A stretch of DNA of 10,468 nt from an uncultured Lentisphaerota bacterium (GCA_903894975.1 CAITSE010000040.1:1-10468); one strand, 5' to 3'. Positions 2,782 through 10,468 are shown, counted from the stretch's first letter. The notes: a model not told the origin generated them from the letters alone. Program-made: numbers and translations.

Positions 2782-3144
2782 ATGGTGGATGAAACCAAAA
2801 ACTATCTGACTTTGGAAGAGGTCGCGGACCGGCTGGGAGTGCATTACCAGCTCATCTACCGGTTGGTGCGTGACGGCGAGCTGCCGGCGATCCGGCTGGG
2901 CCGGGTGTACCGGGTGGAGACGACGGATCTGGAGGCCTTCCTCCAGGCGTCAAAGACGGCGCGGGTGCGTTCGCCGGGGGCGGAGCCGCCGGCGGCGTGC
3001 AGCGCCTGCGGCAAGGTCTACAAGAGCCGGCAGTCGCTGACCCAGGAATGTGAAGAGTGCAGCAGCCCGATTTGCGCGGATTGCTGGAGCCGGCGGAAGG
3101 TGCGCAAGTGCAAGGAGCATGGGGGCGGCGGTGGGGGTGGGTGA
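2782..3144 (+). CDS. Excisionase-family (Xis/MerR-like) helix-turn-helix DNA-binding protein with a C-terminal Cys-rich zinc ribbon and poly-Gly tail
   Basis: LTLEEVADRLGVHYQLIYRLVRDGELPAIRLGRVYRVETTDLEAFL matches the excisionase-type HTH pattern (TIGR01764-like). C-terminus CSACGKV...ECEECSSPICADCW has three CxxC-type pairs. The ORF ends in GGGGGGG encoded by the start of the heptamer tract. Confidence 0.85.
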   Translation: MVDETKNYLTLEEVADRLGVHYQLIYRLVRDGELPAIRLGRVYRVETTDLEAFLQASKTARVRSPGAEPPAACSACGKVYKSRQSLTQECEECSSPICADCWSRRKVRKCKEHGGGGGGG

Positions 3145-3145
3145 A

Positions 3146-3178
3146 GGGTTCAGGGTTCGGGGTTCAGGAAGGGCTGGG
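3146..3178 (+). repeat. GGGTTCAGGGTTCGGGGTTCAGG heptamer cluster (G4-capable) immediately after the HTH gene
   Basis: Direct reading: gggttcagggttcggggttcagg followed by aagggctggggttcc. Confidence 0.8.
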
Positions 3179-3185
3179 GTTCCGA

Positions 3186-3253
3186 ACAAATCCAAAATCG
3201 GCAATCCAAAATCCAAAATCAATAATCGGCGATCGGCAATCGAAAATCGGCTG
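3186..3253 (+). repeat. A-rich 'AATCCAAAATCGGCAATCC' repeat block; contains a 24-nt motif AATCGGCAATCCAAAATCCAAAAT (3196-3219) also present at 7890-7913
   Basis: aaatccaaaatcggcaatccaaaatccaaaatcaataatcggcgatcggcaatcgaaaatcggctg; internal near-repeats of AATCGGCAATC and AAAATCCAAAATC. Immediately followed by RBS TAAGGAGG (3254-3261) and ATG 3269. Confidence 0.6.
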
Positions 3254-3268
3254 TAAGGAGGTTGAATC

Positions 3269-4891
3269 ATGGGTCTTTTCTCTGACAATTGCCCGGAGTG
3301 TGGCACCAACGTGCGGCGTACGGCGAAGTTCTGCGGCAAGTGCGGGAAGCCGGGGCCGAAGAGCTGGTTCAAGTGTCCGTCCTGCCGGAAATGGGTGGGC
3401 GGGGATTCGGAGTTTTGCTGGAACTGCCATGCGGCCTTGCATCCGAACCAGCGCGGGGTGATGTCCGGCGGCATCTGGCAGCGCCCGGCCGGGATGTTCG
3501 CCCAACGTTTTGACGTGGACGATCTGCGCGGCCAGCTTGGCAAGGGCGTCATGGTTCAGGCCGGCACCTCCGCGGTGCTTTTGGACCAGGGCGTGCTCAA
3601 GGACGTGCTGGAGCCCGGCCGGCACACGCTCGACAGCCTGATGCAGCGGCTGCTGCACTGGGGTGAACCGGCCCCGCGCACCGTGATCCTGGTGGATGAC
3701 GGGGACGTGGTGCTGCCGTTGCGCATCGAGGGGTTGCGGACGCGTGAGGAGATGCCGGTCGAGTTTTACGGCGAGGTCGCCATCCATTTCCAGGCCGCGG
3801 GCGCGGATCGGCTGGTGGCGAACCTGCTGAAGGAAAAGCGGGAGGTGACCTGCCTGGAGATCACGGAGCATCTGGCCGGCGAGATCCGGTACGCCGTGCA
3901 GAACCTTTGCCAGCAGTCGCTGATGGAAGAATTGATCCGCGACCCGGAGCGGCGGCTGCGCTTGGAGAACACTCTCCAGCAGACCTTGTCCGCGGCGCTG
4001 GACCGGTTGGGGCTGGCGCTGGTGCGGGTGGCGTCGGCGGAGTTCGCGGGAACGGAATACGAGGCCATCCGCGAGAAAATGGGCGGGGTGGAACTGAAGC
4101 GGCGCGAGATTGAGTTTGACCAGCGGTTGCGGGAACTGCTGTCTTCGGACCAGATGCACCAGTTCAAGAACGAGCACGAGCTGGAGGAATACGTCAGCCA
4201 GCTCGCCCAGGAAAAGAATATCAGCGCTTCGCACCGGAACCAGGAGTTGGCGCTGTTGAAGCAGGTGCAGCGGCATGAGTTAGAGGGACACGAGGCGGAG
4301 TTCCAGATCCGGCGGGAACAAGAGCAGGCGGAGCACGAGATCGGCATCAAGGTCAAGTGGGACGATTACGGCCGCGACAAATCGCTTAAGGACGAGCGCA
4401 CCACGGACGAGATCGAGACGATCCGCCGCAAGCGCGAGGATGAAGAAGTCAAACTGGCCCTAACCTGGCGCCAGAAGAAGCAGCAGCTTGAACGCGAGCA
4501 CGAAGGGGAGCTGAAACGCTTGGAGCGCGACGACCTGGCCGAGCGCGGCCGGATCTTCTCCGGGATGAATCTGGAGACGATGCTGGCCACGATCGAGGAT
4601 CCGGCCCGGCGGGCGCACCTGCTGGAAATGCAGCAGCAACTGCAAGCGGCCGGGAAGACGCCGGCGGAGATCCTGGCGATGCAGGCGGGCCGCTCCCCGG
4701 CCGCGGCCGCGGCGTTGCAGGAAATGCTGAGGTCGAACCGGGAATTGCTCGAGTCCGAATTCAAGGAGCGGCAGCGGATCTCGGACGATGGCGCCAAGCG
4801 CCTGGAAGAAGTGATGAAAAAAGCGTTGGAAGCCGTGGCCGAGGCCGCCAAGCGCAGCGGCGGCGGCGGTCCCGTGAACATTGTGACGTGA
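3269..4891 (+). CDS. Three-part protein: N-terminal double zinc ribbon, a Band_7_1 / SPFH-like domain (YdjI-type), and a ~300-aa highly charged E/R/K/Q-rich coiled-coil C-terminal region
   Basis: Strong RBS AAGGAGG 7 nt upstream. CPECG...CGKCG and CPSC...CWNC zinc-ribbon pairs. KGVMVQAGTSAVLLDQGVLKDVLEPGRHTLDS matches the LIVRESQAAVF..G.i.DvF.PG.YTLDT signature of the SPFH-like Band_7_1 family. The region from ~REIEFDQRLRELL to EEVMKKALEAVAEAAKR is heptad-like and charge-rich. Confidence 0.85.
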   Translation: MGLFSDNCPECGTNVRRTAKFCGKCGKPGPKSWFKCPSCRKWVGGDSEFCWNCHAALHPNQRGVMSGGIWQRPAGMFAQRFDVDDLRGQLGKGVMVQAGTSAVLLDQGVLKDVLEPGRHTLDSLMQRLLHWGEPAPRTVILVDDGDVVLPLRIEGLRTREEMPVEFYGEVAIHFQAAGADRLVANLLKEKREVTCLEITEHLAGEIRYAVQNLCQQSLMEELIRDPERRLRLENTLQQTLSAALDRLGLALVRVASAEFAGTEYEAIREKMGGVELKRREIEFDQRLRELLSSDQMHQFKNEHELEEYVSQLAQEKNISASHRNQELALLKQVQRHELEGHEAEFQIRREQEQAEHEIGIKVKWDDYGRDKSLKDERTTDEIETIRRKREDEEVKLALTWRQKKQQLEREHEGELKRLERDDLAERGRIFSGMNLETMLATIEDPARRAHLLEMQQQLQAAGKTPAEILAMQAGRSPAAAAALQEMLRSNRELLESEFKERQRISDDGAKRLEEVMKKALEAVAEAAKRSGGGGPVNIVT

Positions 4892-4907
4892 GCGGGAACA
4901 TGCCGTC

Positions 4908-6212
4908 ATGAAACTGTCGTCCTGTCCAACCTGCGGCCGCGAAACCAGTTCGGGAGCTTATTATTGCCCGGGCTGCGGCGAGAAACTGCGCGGCGGCGCC
5001 GGGGCTGACGCGCCGGCGATGCCGGTCGCGGCGGCGGCGCGGGCGTTTGCGGCCGGCGGTCTGGAGCACCCGGCGCTGGGACTGCGGGGCATGGCGCTGA
5101 TGGACGGAGGCCCAGTGCTGAAGCGGCTGGACGCGTGGGTGCTGGACCGGCTCAGGCTGACGCGGTACGGCGCGAAAACGGAAGTGCCGACGGTGCTCTG
5201 CGAGACCGGCGAGGAATTCTACGGCGCGCTGTTCGCAGACGAACCGCTCTCCCAGGCGCAGATGCGGGAGCTGCTGGCGGCCCAGCTCGCCGCGGCCCAG
5301 GCGCAGGCCGAAGACGGCGGCGGCATGTTCGGCCTGTTCCTGGGGGCGCACGGTTGCCTGGTCAACGGCTGGCTGTTCCGGGAGTTGGCGGGGCTGGACT
5401 CGGTGGCGGCGTGCCTGAAGCGGCCGGAGGTGGCCGCCCGGATCTTCACCACGGCGGCCCATGAAAAATGGGGGCATGGTTTCATCAGCACCTGCACGGA
5501 GCTGGGGCGCGAGGCGGCGGCGCTGGACCTGGACCGGTTTCATTATGCCCGGCGCTTTCCCGCCCAGACCGTGACCACGCCGCGCGGCGTGCTGCTGCGG
5601 GAAAAATCCCAGGCGGTGTTCCAGGCCTCCCGGTTTGTCGAGGAAGGCTGGGCCTCCTGGGTGGATCAGCTTGCGGGGCGGAACCTGGCGGCCATTCTGC
5701 CGGAATGTCCGGAAGGCGGCGGCGGACACACTCTGCCGGAGCCGGAAACCCTGCTGGCGGCGCTGGCCGATGTCCTGCCGCCCGCCGGTATGAAGGCGAT
5801 GACGGTGTTGCTGCGACCCGGCGCGGGCACGCCGGAGCAGGCGACGGCGGCCATGGCGTGGCTGGAGGAGGCCGAAGAAAAGCTGAACGCATTTTTCACG
5901 GCGCGCTTTCATCGGCCGGCCCGGTATGTCGTCGGCCAGGCCATGTGCGCGGCGCTGGCGGCGCGGCTGGGGGAACGGGCGGTCCCGGCGGCGGTGGCGC
6001 TCGCGGGAAACGTCCGGTATGAACTTGAAAAGACCAGTGTGTCAGACCTGGTTTCGGTGGTGGCGGGCAATTCCGGGCTGAACATGAATCGGCGTCTGGC
6101 GGCGCTGCTGGCGCTGGCGGCCGCGGTGCCGCCCGGCGGGGATGCCGCCGTGGCGTTGGCGCGGGCGGCGCACGACCGGCTGAGCTGGACTGTGCCGGAG
6201 TGGGCAAGATAA
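4908..6212 (+). CDS. N-terminal zinc-ribbon protein with an Ala/Leu-rich C-terminal domain of unknown function (contains HEKWGH)
   Basis: CPTCG...CPGCG zinc ribbon in the first 25 aa; 17-nt gap from the upstream gene, so it is operonic. No confident family match beyond the zinc ribbon. HEKWGHGF is HExxxH, not a canonical HExxH zincin motif. Confidence 0.75.
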   Translation: MKLSSCPTCGRETSSGAYYCPGCGEKLRGGAGADAPAMPVAAAARAFAAGGLEHPALGLRGMALMDGGPVLKRLDAWVLDRLRLTRYGAKTEVPTVLCETGEEFYGALFADEPLSQAQMRELLAAQLAAAQAQAEDGGGMFGLFLGAHGCLVNGWLFRELAGLDSVAACLKRPEVAARIFTTAAHEKWGHGFISTCTELGREAAALDLDRFHYARRFPAQTVTTPRGVLLREKSQAVFQASRFVEEGWASWVDQLAGRNLAAILPECPEGGGGHTLPEPETLLAALADVLPPAGMKAMTVLLRPGAGTPEQATAAMAWLEEAEEKLNAFFTARFHRPARYVVGQAMCAALAARLGERAVPAAVALAGNVRYELEKTSVSDLVSVVAGNSGLNMNRRLAALLALAAAVPPGGDAAVALARAAHDRLSWTVPEWAR

Positions 6213-6240
6213 ACAGTAGTGAGAGCTGGGAACGATCCTC

Positions 6241-7773
6241 ATGGCGGATGACGCGACCATTCAATGCGGGAAGTGCGGGCGTCTGGTGCCGGCGGCAATG
6301 TTCTGCGACAACTGCGGGGCGCCGCTGGCTCCGGCTTCCCCGGACACCCCGGCGGCCCGGAGAGAGGCGGCGGCGGAGCGGGACGAGCGGAACGGCTCCG
6401 TTGCGGGAGGGGAAGAACGGGAGACGACGATGGAACCGATCGCGGCGCCCCGGCCGCGGGAGATGCGGATGCCGCCGTCGCCGGTCCGGCCCACGGACAT
6501 GCAATCGGACTGTGACGCCCTGGAGTTTTCGGTGGATGTGAGCCGGGTGTTCGTGGCAGGCGCTACTTTCCCGCTCAAGGTACGCCTGCAGTCCTCCGGG
6601 TTGGAACTGAGACGGGTCAAGGTGGAGGTGGCGACGGATCTGCCGGGCGGCGGCGCGCTACGGTCGGGCCAGACCCTGGACCGGTTACGCGCCGGTGGCG
6701 TCCGGGAACTGTCGCTGGATCTGAGCTTGCCGGAAGGGATGCAGGGGGAAAAGACCTTCCGCTGGAGCGTTTGCCTGGAGCGCGACGGCCAGCCCTGCCG
6801 GTTTGAGGCGGACCCGGTGCGGTACACGATCTATCCCGGCGATGCCAGCGCGCGGAAGGTCGTGGAGCAGGTGGTGTTCAACATCCACACCGGCCACGCC
6901 TCGGACGTGAACATCGGCGGCAAGGGCGCAGCCGAGGACTTTTTCCGCAGCCTGCGGGGCGGCGACGGCTCGGTCCGGGAACTCCTGGACCGGATGCGGA
7001 ACGCCCCGGAAGTCTGGCAGGCACTGCCTTTGCACGAATGCGAGCTTACCCTCCTGGACACGGCCCCGCCTGACGCCGCCGTGACGGGCCGGCTGACGCT
7101 GCGCGCCGGGCAGACACTGTTCCATTTGATCGCCGGGCCCGCGGTGCAGCTCGGTCGGAACCGGCAGTGCGAACTGGTGACGCGGCTGTTCTCGGCCGCG
7201 GGCGCCGCGGAGCCGGATCTGAACGCGCTCCTGAGCCGGGTGCATGCCCGGATCGAATGCGGCACGTCCGGGTGGACCGTCGAGGACGGCGGGATCAACC
7301 CGGAGGATGGCCGCTTCAAGGCGAGTTCCGGCGGGGTGTTCGTCAACGGCCAGCGCGTGGCTCCCGGAGTGAAGAGTCCTCTCCCGTTGAACCGCCCTTT
7401 TGGGCTGACCCTGGGCGCGCCGGCCGTGACGGAACCGCGGGTGATGGGCTTTGATGCGGAACTGCTGACCTGCGAGCGCTGGAACGGGGCGGACTGCCCG
7501 GTGGCGGCCCGGTGCGACCGGAAGCGGCCCGCCTGCCTGCTGCTGCGCCGGCGCGACCGGGTGCCGGAGCGGTTCGCGCTGATCGGCTGCGCTTGCGCCC
7601 CGGGGCTCAGCGTGGGGCTGCCGGAACTGGGTTCGCTGCGGGTCTGGCGGGTGCGGGATGCGTTTGCCTTCAAGTGCGGCGACCAGACCGGCTGGCTGAC
7701 GCCCGGCATCCAACTGCGGCTCTCCGGCGGCACCCAGGTCGCGGTCGAAGGCTTCCAGCAGTGGGGCTTATGA
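6241..7773 (+). CDS. N-terminal zinc ribbon + central region + FHA (forkhead-associated, phosphothreonine-binding) domain + Cys-containing C-terminal region
   Basis: CGKCG...CDNCG zinc ribbon. FHA signature at ~nt 7120-7420: LGRNRQCELV...LSRVHARIEC...WTVEDGG...SSGGVFVNGQRV...LPLNRPFGLTLG. 28-nt gap from the upstream gene. Confidence 0.85.
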   Translation: MADDATIQCGKCGRLVPAAMFCDNCGAPLAPASPDTPAARREAAAERDERNGSVAGGEERETTMEPIAAPRPREMRMPPSPVRPTDMQSDCDALEFSVDVSRVFVAGATFPLKVRLQSSGLELRRVKVEVATDLPGGGALRSGQTLDRLRAGGVRELSLDLSLPEGMQGEKTFRWSVCLERDGQPCRFEADPVRYTIYPGDASARKVVEQVVFNIHTGHASDVNIGGKGAAEDFFRSLRGGDGSVRELLDRMRNAPEVWQALPLHECELTLLDTAPPDAAVTGRLTLRAGQTLFHLIAGPAVQLGRNRQCELVTRLFSAAGAAEPDLNALLSRVHARIECGTSGWTVEDGGINPEDGRFKASSGGVFVNGQRVAPGVKSPLPLNRPFGLTLGAPAVTEPRVMGFDAELLTCERWNGADCPVAARCDRKRPACLLLRRRDRVPERFALIGCACAPGLSVGLPELGSLRVWRVRDAFAFKCGDQTGWLTPGIQLRLSGGTQVAVEGFQQWGL

Positions 7774-7781
7774 AGAGGAGA

Positions 7782-7865
7782 AGGCAGGGGTCGGGGTTCA
7801 GGGTTCAGGAAGCAAAGATGTCAGGACGCAAGGGTTCAGGGGTCGGGGTTCAGGGTTCAGGAAAG
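7782..7865 (+). repeat. Two GGGTTCR heptamer clusters (7782-7808 and 7829-7861), G-rich on + strand, G4-capable
   Basis: ggggtcggggttcagggttcagg ... agggttcaggggtcggggttcagggttcagg. Confidence 0.8.
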
Positions 7866-7870
7866 GCCAG

Positions 7871-7932
7871 GAATTAGGGAAAAATCCGGAATCGGCAATC
7901 CAAAATCCAAAATGAGAATCAGGGTTCAGGGA
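7871..7932 (+). repeat. A-rich block carrying the shared 24-nt motif AATCGGCAATCCAAAATCCAAAAT (7890-7913), followed by AGGGTTCAGGG
   Basis: gaattagggaaaaatccggaatcggcaatccaaaatccaaaatgagaatcagggttcaggg; identical 24-mer to 3196-3219. Confidence 0.6.
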
Positions 7933-7964
7933 AAAAAAACGGGAAAAGTGGGAGAACGATCGAC

Positions 7965-8456
7965 ATGGAAACGTACCGGAGGTTGGAGGACTTGGCGGTT
8001 TACGCGAAGCTTTGTCACTTGCACATTGAGATCAGCGGGATCACGCACCGATGGCCGGCTGAGGAGAAGTACGAGCTGGGATCGCAGGCCCGGCGTTCAT
8101 CGAACAGCGCCCCGGCCCAACTTGCGGAGAAGTATGATGACCGGCATATTCGGAACAAAATCGAAGGAGTCAATCGCAGTCGGGGCGAGGCCGCGGAGAC
8201 GGTACACCATCTTTACATGGCACATTTGCGGGGCTACGAGTCTCAGACGACGTATGAAGAATACCGCGCCCGCTACCAGGAATGCATCCGGATGCTTAAC
8301 GGCATGGAACGAACCCTTGAAAAACAACTGCCCGAATCGGAGCGGCGTTGGCCCCAATTGTCCGTGCGGGAAGAGGAGGGCTCGTATGACGCCTCCCCCC
8401 GCGGTTTCCCCGACCCCCGACCCCTGACCCCCGACCCCCGAACCCCTGAACCCTGA
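7965..8456 (+). CDS. Four-helix-bundle protein of the TIGR02436 family (the family first seen inside 23S rRNA intervening sequences); the last ~20 codons are translated C-rich repeat
   Basis: LGSQARRSSNSAPAQLAEKY...HIRNKIEGVNRSRGEAAETVHHLYMAHLRGY...YQECIRMLNGMERTLEK matches the family signature (L.SQ.RRSS.S...NIAEG...F..A.GS..E..~~...L.yi...eei.kML..Li). RBS GGAGA at 7951-7955. Tail ...PRGFPDPRPLTPDPRTPEP is repeat-derived. Confidence 0.8.
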   Translation: METYRRLEDLAVYAKLCHLHIEISGITHRWPAEEKYELGSQARRSSNSAPAQLAEKYDDRHIRNKIEGVNRSRGEAAETVHHLYMAHLRGYESQTTYEEYRARYQECIRMLNGMERTLEKQLPESERRWPQLSVREEEGSYDASPRGFPDPRPLTPDPRTPEP

Positions 8457-8490
8457 ACCCCGAACCCCGAACCCTGAACCCCGAACCCTA
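8403..8490 (-). repeat. Heptamer cluster in inverted orientation (CCCYGAC/CCCTGAA/CCCCGAA units; G-rich on minus strand)
   Basis: cccgcggtttccccgacccccgacccctgacccccgacccccgaacccctgaaccctgaaccccgaaccccgaaccctgaaccccgaaccctaagcc; reverse complement of the GGGTTCR arrays at 7782-7865. Confidence 0.8.
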
Positions 8491-8511
8491 AGCCGGAAAG
8501 GGAATGAACCG

Positions 8512-9366
8512 ATGAATACGAGGACAACCATGAAAATGACGCGCGGATTGATGACGGCGGCGCTGGCGGCGGGATTGGCCGCGGGCCTGGGCACGGGTTG
8601 TGCAACGCTTTGTCCCGGTAAGACGGCGGCGCCGCCGCCGGTGGTGTCTCCGCCGCCGGTGCCGACGCCAACTCCGCCGGCCCCGATGCCAGTGTTGGCT
8701 CCGCCCCCGGCCCCGGCGATGGCCGTGGGGAAAGAGACCATGCTGAAGGTTCAGGTGCAGGCGACCGGGAGCGGCGCGGATGCCGCAGCGGTGGCGGACG
8801 CATTGAAGATCCACGCGGAAGGCAAGCTCGCCGCCGGCGGGTTTGCCGTCACTCCCAACCAGCCGGAGGTCGCGGTGACCATGGCGGTGACGACGGAGTT
8901 GTTCGACCAGTCCGGGAATTACTTTGTCTTTGACGGCCGGACAGTGGTGTCGGCCGTGCGCATCTTTGACGGCAAGCTTTTGGGCAAGATCGAATTGAAC
9001 GCCCGCAATGAACGCAAACTCGGCCGGGCCGCGGCGCTGGCGGCCCTCACCGCGAAGATGAAGGACGAGGCGGCGTCCTGGCTGGCGGCCACGATCACGC
9101 CGGATAAGATGGGAATCGCCGCCAGCACGCTGCGAGTGCGGCTGGCTTGGGACGACGTGAACAAGGACGGGGAGTTTGCCACGAAATTCACCGGCAAAGT
9201 CACTCAGATTCCCGGCATTGCGCGTTGCACCATGGAGCGCGAGGATTATACGGAACGGATGCTGAATTTTCGCATCCTCCATATGAAAGACCAATTCCCG
9301 GAGGGCATGGTCACGCGGCTTTTCGCGACGCCGGGCCTTGGGATTGTGCCGGATGTGAAGAAGTGA
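8512..9366 (+). CDS. Secreted or lipoprotein-like hypothetical protein: signal peptide, Cys after the h-region, Pro-rich linker, then a ~210-aa domain of unknown function
   Basis: MNTRTTMKMTRGLMTAALAAGLAAGLGTGCATLC then PPPVVSPPPVPTPTPPAPMPVLAPPPAPA. An alternative start ATG at 8530 (MKMTRG...) has a better SD (GAGGA, 7-nt spacer). Lipobox fit (LGTGC) is only approximate. Confidence 0.7.
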   Translation: MNTRTTMKMTRGLMTAALAAGLAAGLGTGCATLCPGKTAAPPPVVSPPPVPTPTPPAPMPVLAPPPAPAMAVGKETMLKVQVQATGSGADAAAVADALKIHAEGKLAAGGFAVTPNQPEVAVTMAVTTELFDQSGNYFVFDGRTVVSAVRIFDGKLLGKIELNARNERKLGRAAALAALTAKMKDEAASWLAATITPDKMGIAASTLRVRLAWDDVNKDGEFATKFTGKVTQIPGIARCTMEREDYTERMLNFRILHMKDQFPEGMVTRLFATPGLGIVPDVKK

Positions 9367-9403: not shown

Positions 9404-9853
9404 AAACGCCAAAGGGTTCAGGGTTCGGGGTTCAGGACGGATGGATGCGAAACACACTCAAGCTCCAATGTCCCCCGTCCCCTGCCACCCTAAACGCCAA
9501 AGGGTTCGGGGTTCAGGGTTCAGGACGGATGGATGCGAAACACACTCAAGCTCCAATGTCCTCCGTCCCCCTGCCACCCTAAACGCCAAAGGGTTCGGGG
9601 TTCGGGGTTCAGGACGGATGGATGCGAAACACATTCAAGCTCCAAGGTCCCCTGTCCCCTGCCACCGAGAGGTGAATGCAAAACGCCAAAGGGTTCGGGG
9701 TTCGGGGTTCAGGACGAATGGATGCGAAACACACTCAAGCTCCAATGTCCCCTGTCCCCTGCCACCCCAAACGCCAAAGGGTTCAGGGTTCGGGGTTCAG
9801 GACGAATGGATGCGAAACACACTCAAGCTCCAATGTCCCCGTCCCCCCACCCC
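9404..9853 (+). repeat. Five tandem copies of an ~88-bp unit (88, 89, 100 with a 13-nt insert, 88, ~85 bp), each containing AAACGCCAAAGGGTTCRGGGTTCRGGGTTCAGGACGRATGGATGCGAAACACACTCAAGCTCCAATGTCCCCYGTCCCCTGCCACCC
   Basis: Unit boundaries at aaacgcc: 9404, 9492, 9581, 9681, 9769. The third unit carries the gagaggtgaatgc insert that also precedes the first unit (9391-9403). Not CRISPR: there are no unique spacers; the whole unit is repeated. Confidence 0.85.
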
Positions 9854-9890
9854 CTGAACCCTGAACCCTGAACCCTGAACCCTGAACCCT
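9854..9890 (-). repeat. (CCCTGAA)5 perfect heptamer run, the reverse complement of TTCAGGG, capping the 88-bp tandem array
   Basis: ccctgaaccctgaaccctgaaccctgaaccctgaaccct. Confidence 0.85.
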
Positions 9891-9988
9891 ACCCTCGCAC
9901 CCCTTCTGCACCCGCCTCTTGAAACTGGAACTGGAACTCAGAGATTGGCAACGGAACTGTCGGAAACATCAGGCAAGGAGATCATGGC

Positions 9989-10468
9989 ATGAAAACGATT
10001 CATTGGATGAGGACGTTGGCGGCGGCAATGCTGTTGCCGTGGGCATGGGCCGGGATGCCGGCGCGGGCACAGTCGCTGCCGGACGAGACCCGGCAGGCCA
10101 TCGGCAAGGTGGGGATGGACGTCCAGGCGGCATTGCAGAAATCCGGGATTCCTAAGAACCAGCCCATCGCGATTCTACCTCTCGCCAACGATCCGGAACA
10201 GTATGTGGCCGGGATGCTGAAGAACGCGGTCACGGCGGCGGGACTGCCCTGCGTCGAAGGCCGGGACGATCCGTTCTGGAACCAGGTGCTGGCCGAGGTG
10301 GAATGGAGTGAGCGCAAGGCGGACATGCTGGATCCGGCAACGCTGACCAAGTTCGGCAAGCTCAAGGCCGCCAAGCTGCTGCTGTACGGCGTGGTACGGG
10401 ACATGTCTTTCTCCGGGGCGAAAGGGTTTGTGGAGATTGAGCTGCACATCAGCGCCATCGAGACCAAG
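9989..10468 (+). CDS. Partial (3'-truncated by the window end) secreted protein with a CsgG/LpoB/FlgO-like periplasmic domain pattern; not in the supplied ORF track because no stop lies within the window
   Basis: RBS AAGGAG (9975-9980), 8 nt before ATG 9989. Signal peptide MKTIHWMRTLAAAMLLPWAWAGMPARA/QS. QPIAILPLANDPEQYVAGMLKNAVTAAGLPCVEGRDDPFWNQVLAEVEW...KLKAAKLLLYGVV resembles the iAVlpf.n.......g..l.d.L...L...g..vvER..l..vl.E pattern of the CsgG/LpoB-type fold. Open frame to the end of the window (160 codons). Confidence 0.6.
   Translation, partial: MKTIHWMRTLAAAMLLPWAWAGMPARAQSLPDETRQAIGKVGMDVQAALQKSGIPKNQPIAILPLANDPEQYVAGMLKNAVTAAGLPCVEGRDDPFWNQVLAEVEWSERKADMLDPATLTKFGKLKAAKLLLYGVVRDMSFSGAKGFVEIELHISAIETK

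Follow-up and report, generated by a model that had tools for sequence, protein, structure and literature searches.

The subject of this report is a cluster of zinc-ribbon genes found on a 10,468-nucleotide stretch of DNA from an uncultured Lentisphaerota bacterium (GCA_903894975.1, CAITSE010000040.1:1-10468), the whole of which is referred to as the window. [quoted passage not shown] Of a multi-gene system of the Planctomycetota-Verrucomicrobiota-Chlamydiota (PVC) bacteria the window carries the upstream half, which is truncated by the contig end. The conserved core of the system consists of a helix-turn-helix (HTH) protein, the SPFH and FHA proteins and two lipoproteins; after these there often come a helical protein with a zinc finger (c6), a Snf7-like protein (c7a) and a Vps4-like AAA ATPase (c7b).

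The conserved gene cluster

The genes of the window that belong to the cluster are the following:

2782-3144, + strand: HTH protein, an HTH_17 (excisionase/MerR-like) DNA-binding domain with a C-terminal eight-ligand (C7H) zinc finger
3269-4891, + strand: SPFH protein, a double zinc ribbon, an SPFH/Band_7 domain and a long charged coiled coil
4908-6212, + strand: third protein, a zinc ribbon and a putative zincin-fold (gluzincin-like) metallopeptidase, with no Pfam domain
6241-7773, + strand: zinc-ribbon FHA protein, its FHA domain above the Pfam cut-off
8512-9366, + strand: LIPOa, a conserved lipoprotein with an invariant lipobox Cys30 and no Pfam match
9989-10468, + strand: LIPOb, 5' part (first 160 codons, 480 nt), recognised by tblastn and ending at the window edge

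The first four are the co-directional zinc-ribbon genes (2782-7773) singled out by the first-pass annotation, and they are real: all lie on the + strand, with 124, 16 and 28 nt between successive genes.

The distribution of the cluster was established by a scan with an SPFH profile, in which about 185,000 species were each represented by a single genome; this pattern-limited scan gave 39 loci, all in PVC bacteria. Thirty-seven of them were tabulated with the window, making 38, and gene order was derived from tblastn and all-against-all clustering of open reading frames (ORFs). The recurring order is HTH, SPFH, an optional peptidase, FHA, LIPOa, LIPOb, c6, c7a and c7b, and it is found in Verrucomicrobiota, Kiritimatiellia and Lentisphaerae, with amino-acid identities of 33-48% between the SPFH proteins. 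Counting only loci with enough flanking DNA, the HTH gene stands upstream of SPFH in 31/35 eligible loci and the FHA gene downstream of it in 32/34, followed by a lipoprotein in 22/30, c6 in 18/24, the Snf7-like c7a in 15/24 and the AAA ATPase c7b in 14/24; a re-search with hidden Markov models (HMMs) gave similar values. Thus the unit of four genes originally proposed is not the conserved one, which lacks the third gene in most loci and continues beyond the fourth.

In most loci LIPOa adjoins the 3' side of the FHA gene. LIPOb, which is paralogous to LIPOa, has a signal peptide, and its full-length homologues also have a C-terminal transmembrane (TM) anchor; the part encoded in the window reaches 66% identity to its homologues by tblastn. 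Moreover, a near-identical contig was found in a metagenome of the European Nucleotide Archive (ENA), and a longer copy (11,288 bp) shows that the LIPOb gene (388 aa) begins at about 9989 and extends past the end of the window. Profiles of the lipoproteins gave faint PelC, LpoB or OutS-like hints. No TM segments were found in the HTH, SPFH, peptidase and FHA proteins.

That these zinc-ribbon genes have no common function, and lie together by chance or through local repeats in one genome, can hardly be credited. In favour of it, zinc ribbons of a generic kind are widespread and repeat-driven rearrangements abound in the window; but the same gene order is kept, with amino-acid identities of 25-60%, by dozens of genomes and contigs from metagenomes: the genes co-occur well outside the source genome, and chance juxtaposition is refuted by this synteny.

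The Snf7-like protein and the AAA ATPase

The proteins that give the cluster its ESCRT-like character are encoded downstream. The Snf7-like c7a, of about 200 aa, was present in 18 loci in the HMM re-search, and 14/14 members match the Pfam Snf7 family (best E 7e-8). In a profile search of the PDB, five of its seven matches were to Snf7 or ESCRT-III proteins, with Snf7 at the top. Furthermore, its N-terminal half is basic (pI ~10) and its C-terminal half acidic (pI ~4.3), which is the polarity of ESCRT-III. PspA_IM30 is absent among the 25 families listed for c7a (31 matched in all), and it has no match in the proteins of the window. An analogy with the PspA-linked ydj locus of Bacillus subtilis had been suggested at the outset; it pointed in the right direction, towards a partner of the ESCRT-III superfamily, here Snf7-like and not of the PspA type.

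The AAA ATPase c7b is a protein of about 370 aa of the classic clade, with a single AAA module and no TM segments. Its alignment with archaeal CdvC is colinear over the full length (16-366 vs 19-365 of 370, E 2e-56), and CDC48 aligns with the AAA part alone. All members share an invariant SKW-GESE pore loop, which we take to be Vps4-like; against Vps4_C the match was weak (E 0.045). As for context, a Snf7-family gene lies between 3 nt and 5.5 kb from the ATPase gene in 13/15 ATPase-bearing loci, being adjacent to it in about half; in two loci (L026 and L028) kinase genes stand between the two. In one locus a single ORF of 463 aa (L031:7720-9111) is matched, with reduced scores, by two profiles, that of the Snf7-like protein and that of the AAA ATPase, and may be either a fusion or a mis-assembled junction.

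The remaining downstream protein, c6, has about 315 aa: an N-terminal zinc finger precedes a helical remainder that is basic and then acidic, and a weak match to CHMP4B was found. By hhalign (95.9%, E 5e-9) this finger has a homologue in the one at the C-terminus of the HTH protein.

On these data, a stronger proposition can be formulated: that PVC bacteria own a genuine Snf7-type ESCRT-III and Vps4-like machine, with a zinc-ribbon SPFH scaffold, kinase-FHA control, coupling to envelope lipoproteins and ATP-driven scission, vesicle formation or repair, as the bacterial counterpart of archaeal variants by way of ancient inheritance or inter-domain transfer. This we regard as a serious candidate, with chances somewhat short of even.

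The SPFH and HTH proteins

Residues 95-254 of the SPFH protein match Band_7 (PF01145) with 32.2 bits against a cut-off of 23.6, so that the SPFH-like domain of the first-pass annotation stands. The Band_7_1 label (PF13421) attached to it does not: the score is 20.2 bits against 24, and residues 89-123 alone are aligned. A total of 109 homologous clusters share the same architecture, most with PF01145 precomputed, and the named homologues come from Lentisphaerae, Kiritimatiellia, Planctomycetota and metagenome-assembled genomes labelled "PVC group". Four CxxC motifs form two N-terminal zinc ribbons, and a match to the Pfam family DZR was found among the window proteins (29.7 bits vs a cut-off of 27.3). 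The double ribbon occupies the position in which stomatin, flotillin and HflK/C have their membrane anchor, and no hydrophobic or TM segment was found in the SPFH protein, unlike in those proteins.

The HTH protein belongs to the excisionase type first suggested for it (HTH_17, E 1.6e-15). Its zinc ligands are C73/76, C90/93, C98/101, C110 and H113, and since these amount to eight (seven Cys and one His) the motif is a two-zinc finger and not a plain ribbon. The CxxC motifs lie where the earlier annotation placed them, and the double-CxxC ribbon that it gave to every product needs two amendments: the SPFH protein has two ribbons and the HTH protein a C7H finger. The ligands are invariant across 25 homologues of the HTH protein, as are the ribbon cysteines in 27 homologues of the SPFH protein; because the cysteines are kept in the homologues of the SPFH, HTH and FHA proteins, they are not there by chance.

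A close paralogue of the SPFH and coiled-coil part, 50% identical across 71% of the query, is found fused to TIR_2 (L120:9001-11037, P0090). Around it lie TIR, NADAR, RelA_SpoT+RyR and AAA+Peptidase_M41 genes, a neighbourhood like that of conflict systems.

An anti-phage or conflict (abortive-infection-like) system, in which infection would be detected by kinase and FHA protein, with the SPFH and ESCRT-III-like proteins as effectors or protectors at the membrane, is an alternative that deserves consideration and is nevertheless unlikely. The TIR_2 fusion and its surroundings speak for it, as do the patchy distribution of the cluster (39 of the species genomes scanned), the weak resemblance of the HTH protein to MAD1 in PADLOC, and the varying modules: an optional peptidase, M48-like peptidases in some Kiritimatiellia loci and a von Willebrand factor A (vWA) protein in a second operon type. 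Yet, when all eight window proteins were compared with PADLOC-DB v2, the SPFH, peptidase, FHA and lipoprotein gave 0 matches, and those of the kinase and HTH proteins were to generic domains; nor were relatives found in a scan of viral contigs with the SPFH profile. The leaning towards defence of the first-pass annotation thus finds no backing in these searches. Moreover, two dedicated envelope lipoproteins are core members, and an order kept over three PVC phyla at 33-48% SPFH identity is more like that of a stably inherited cellular system than of a shuffled defence island.

The FHA protein and the kinases

As first annotated, the fourth zinc-ribbon protein carries an FHA domain (PF00498, 30.5 bits vs 20.7). 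It is composed of a zinc ribbon, a disordered linker, a beta-sandwich (~94-200), a helical region, the FHA domain (~303-380) and a Cys-containing C-terminal domain. The ribbon is formed by C9/12 and C22/25: three of these (C9, C12, C22) do not vary in 29 homologues, and the fourth, C25, is conserved in at least 90%. In the FHA domain, G305 is invariant with Arg or Lys beside it, and S332 and H335 are at least 90% conserved. A profile of the family against the PDB found its best solved relative in ArnA, an archaeal protein of the same zinc finger-FHA type (5a8i, E 9e-10), together with the FHA domains of Rad53, Chk2 and GarA. A word-index search for homologues of the protein gave two matches, and in the AlphaFold2 model, built on a two-sequence input, the mean pLDDT is 48 and the beta-sandwich 94-200 is the sole credible part.

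Two ORFs of the window precede the cluster:

97-1185, + strand: kinase ORF with a Hanks-type Ser/Thr kinase domain (Pkinase, E 5.6e-38)
1194-2579, + strand: ORF with a TM helix and a LamG/sialidase-like carbohydrate-binding module (Sialidase-like_CBM, 28.5 bits vs cut-off 27)

The kinase noted about 1.6 kb upstream is therefore present, and its ORF ends 1597 nt before the HTH gene. The 3' end of this ORF falls within heptamer repeats (1040-1171, translated GSGFRVQGSG / NPQPTTHNPQP), the stretch 1183-1194 being noted with them. The second ORF, in a different frame, begins with a TM helix (residues 2-20) followed by the LamG-like domain. The two are probably one receptor kinase split at the repeat, whether through insertion of the repeat, through a frameshift or through an error of assembly; in that case the kinase gene would end 202 nt upstream of the HTH gene. 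An unsplit equivalent, formed by a zinc ribbon, Pkinase and Laminin_G_3, is found in another locus (L010:15735-17780).

In 22/38 loci one or more kinase ORFs are found within 10 kb, adjacent on the same strand in 10 and between core genes in four. The kinases of these loci bear FGE-sulfatase-like, PEGA, LamG, LysM, Sel1 and PDZ domains as sensors, and one has an N-terminal zinc ribbon. A repeated link between SPFH, FHA and Ser/Thr kinases is thus supported, in agreement with the FHA-kinase partnership proposed initially.

The putative metallopeptidase

The domain of the third protein had been judged unassignable. It is probably a zincin-fold (gluzincin-like) metallopeptidase: the N-terminal ribbon (C6/9, C20/23) is followed by an HExxGH motif at 185-190 and an EEGW motif at 245-248, and H185-E186-x-x-G189-H190 and E246-G247 are invariant in 59 aligned sequences of the family. 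A word-index search gave two matches for this protein and an exhaustive one 125 representatives. It is not M41-like and has no TM segment. The N-terminal ribbon is found in a minority of the family (8/59 and 17/62 sequences), and this limitation suggests that it is a tag gained upon joining a system of this kind.

The peptidase is optional in the window-type cluster. Among the 38 tabulated loci it was found in the window and in one other (L009), to which a small contig (L002, with a kinase after the peptidase) and four further metagenome loci can be added. A metagenome scan anchored on the peptidase returned 74 loci, in which it is accompanied by SPFH in 37, kinases in 33, FHA in 20, an AAA ATPase in 20 and the HTH-zinc-finger protein in 16. 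The order of the four window genes, peptidase included, recurs in L009, L046 and L048 and partially in L047 and L049, the order in L047 being SPFH, peptidase, FHA, LIPOa, LIPOb, c6 and Snf7-like. Peptidases of another type occur in several Kiritimatiellia loci (e.g. L024:18556-20472), where the lipoproteins are succeeded by a tandem pair of M48-like metallopeptidase paralogues and by a small Gly-rich protein that is secreted.

The peptidase is also part of a second operon type. In L077, as an example, the order is an HTH_17-zinc finger protein (412 aa), a 246-aa protein, an AAA ATPase, a 910-aa protein, the peptidase, a 527-aa protein, a zinc ribbon-SPFH-zinc ribbon protein, a vWA and zinc ribbon protein (11981-13270) and a kinase. 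Comparison of the 246-aa protein with the Snf7-like family by hhalign was negative. The 910-aa protein (L077:4096-6828) combines a PQQ beta-propeller, a TPR/alpha-solenoid with IFT- and clathrin-like matches and a C-terminal zinc ribbon, an architecture reminiscent of membrane-coat proteins.

The presence of the peptidase raises the alternative of an SPFH-caged proteolytic quality-control machine like HflK/C-FtsH, in which the AAA protein would unfold membrane-associated substrates for the zincin peptidase under kinase/FHA control. HflK/C cages FtsH; AAA ATPase, zincin peptidase and SPFH are joined in one operon in the second cluster type (L074, L077), and c7b scores well against FtsH-family models. 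The mention of SPFH 24-mer cages in PMC10936438 is counted on the same side. Nevertheless, in the window-type cluster the peptidase is rare and a Snf7-family gene near the ATPase is the rule, the peptidase is not of the M41 type, and neither it nor the ATPase has a TM segment: such a machine is a doubtful explanation of the cluster.

Proposed function

Several observations weigh against the reading of the cluster as a kinase/FHA-controlled SPFH and ESCRT-III/Vps4-type membrane-remodelling system. The window itself stops 480 nt into LIPOb, upstream of the position of the Snf7/Vps4 genes, and where 8 kb or more of flanking DNA is available downstream, about one third of the loci are without these genes within 10 kb. 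Most Snf7 scores of c7a fall under the gathering cut-off (e.g. 16.8 vs 27.3 bits), and hhalign detected no relation between c6 and the Snf7-like family. The scores of c7b against CDC48 D2 and PAN are approximately equal, and in a comparison with the PDB no MIT domain was recognised by sequence in its N-terminal ~100 residues, which are Ala-rich and probably helical; because of these two results c7b is called here CdvC/Vps4-like by architecture and context, and not a proven Vps4 orthologue. In the FHA family the canonical Asn of the phosphopeptide loop is variable. The link with kinases, too, is drawn from adjacency and not from statistics. Finally, the mechanism described below is inferred throughout.

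According to this mechanism, receptor kinases would sense envelope cues by their periplasmic domains and phosphorylate threonines on a component of the system. The FHA protein would then read the phosphothreonine and nucleate or position the SPFH scaffold at the inner face of the cytoplasmic membrane. Since the zinc-ribbon proteins are cytoplasmic and have no TM segment, their common N-terminal ribbons are proposed as a shared assembly or membrane handle. The C-terminal anchor of LIPOb is a candidate trans-membrane link to the periplasm, and the scaffold could be placed by way of its tail. At this site the Snf7-like protein would polymerise, so that the membrane is remodelled, sealed or budded, and would be recycled by the AAA ATPase. 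The HTH protein might be held or titrated at the complex, because it has its zinc finger in common with c6, and later released to give a transcriptional feedback. Where present, the metallopeptidase could process a component or a damaged substrate.

Such a system would serve to repair the envelope, to form vesicles or to turn over microdomains. A role in cell division is unlikely, since these PVC lineages have FtsZ and the cluster is patchy.

Relation to known systems

Among the closest parallels to this organisation are archaeal ones. In the survey of Makarova et al. 2024 (mBio, PMC10936438), the euryarchaeal ESCRT variants 'Meth_adaptin' and 'Halo_FHA' include a zinc ribbon, SPFH and coiled-coil protein, an FHA protein and membrane Ser/Thr kinases, and ESCRT components other than PspA/Vipp1 are described as not identifiable in bacteria. 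The PVC cluster shares with these variants the combination of Vps4-like and ESCRT-III-like proteins with a zinc-ribbon SPFH coiled-coil protein, FHA and kinases, a likeness of domain architecture; it differs in its bacterial host and adds the HTH-zinc-finger regulator, two lipoproteins and sometimes the zincin peptidase.

In bacteria, the PspA-YdjG/H/I(L) system of B. subtilis resembles the PVC cluster in bringing an ESCRT-III-superfamily protein together, at the inner membrane face, with an SPFH/Band-7 protein and with one that has a double zinc ribbon (PMC11237479; Scholz et al. 2021, cited in PMC10936438). The same PSP (phage shock protein) survey reports links between PspA, Band-7 and zinc ribbons in Firmicutes (PMC11237479). 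The polymer protein of PVC bacteria, however, is Snf7-like and not of the PspA type, their SPFH protein itself carries the zinc ribbons, an AAA ATPase, FHA and kinases belong to the cluster, and there is no equivalent of the TPM-domain protein YdjH.

As for Vps4, bacteria are said in a review of 2025 apparently to lack a Vps4-like ATPase (PMC7619361), and the PSP survey describes Vps4-like ATPases transferred to some bacteria (e.g. ACB74714.1) with Snf7 replaced by a TPR + 6TM protein (PMC11237479). The PVC cluster, compared by description, differs from the latter in having a Snf7-family gene near the ATPase (13/15), SPFH, FHA and lipoproteins. We take ACB74714.1 to come from Opitutus terrae, a verrucomicrobium.

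Among individual proteins, ArnA of the Sulfolobales has, like the PVC FHA protein, a zinc finger followed by FHA; it works with Ser/Thr kinases and regulates motility and the DNA-damage response. ArnA has about 214 aa, and the PVC protein differs from it in its extra beta-sandwich, helical and C-terminal domains and in its SPFH/ESCRT-III context. HflK/C-FtsH shares with the PVC cluster an SPFH scaffold, a classic-clade AAA protein and a zinc metallopeptidase. Unlike in that system, ATPase and peptidase are separate and soluble in the PVC cluster, Peptidase_M41 gives no match and the SPFH protein is without a TM anchor.

No description of the PVC cluster was found in full-text literature searches, a check outside which lie passages of PMC7203096 naming Snf7/Vps4 with PVC taxa; the early view of a phospho-linked membrane module not yet described agrees with this result. 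If the proposed reading is true, a bacterial cluster with Snf7 and Vps4/CdvC-like proteins would change the picture of ESCRT absence in bacteria given in reviews, and would offer a tractable bacterial model for regulated ESCRT-III dynamics. It would also add to the debate over eukaryote-like membrane biology in the PVC superphylum, and would suggest for the link between SPFH, ESCRT-III and phosphosignalling, which archaea and eukaryotes also show, a greater age or mobility than had been supposed. Moreover, a fold and a context have been given to three unannotated families: the putative zincin peptidase with its zinc ribbon, the lipoproteins LIPOa and LIPOb, and the helical c6.

Repeats and other features of the window

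Heptamers of the type (AGGGTTC)n are found at 1040-1171, 1274-1308, 3145-3168, 7786-7937, 8400-8495 and 9404-9900. They had been taken as the borders of an accessory island, an idea that was rejected: the same heptamers are dispersed across the window and also interrupt the cluster. One further gene is associated with them:

7965-8456, + strand: 23S_rRNA_IVP / TIGR02436 four-helix-bundle gene

This gene stands between inverted (AGGGTTC)n and (GAACCCC)n arrays (arms 7821-7861 and 8416-8456) and separates the FHA and LIPOa genes, which adjoin in other loci; together with its arrays (7786-8495) it looks like a small inserted cassette. In a similar way LIPOa and LIPOb, neighbours in other loci, are split by an 88-nt tandem array (9404-9846, 4.9 copies with 88% matches), after which a (CCCTGAA)n run extends to 9900. 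A search of the whole window against Rfam, this array included, gave no match.

A scan with the sigma-70 consensus found no + strand promoter at about 2670, where one had been proposed, and a terminator scan gave nothing useful. Upstream of the HTH gene there is a sharply AT-rich stretch (2640-2720), the rest of the window having 65% GC.

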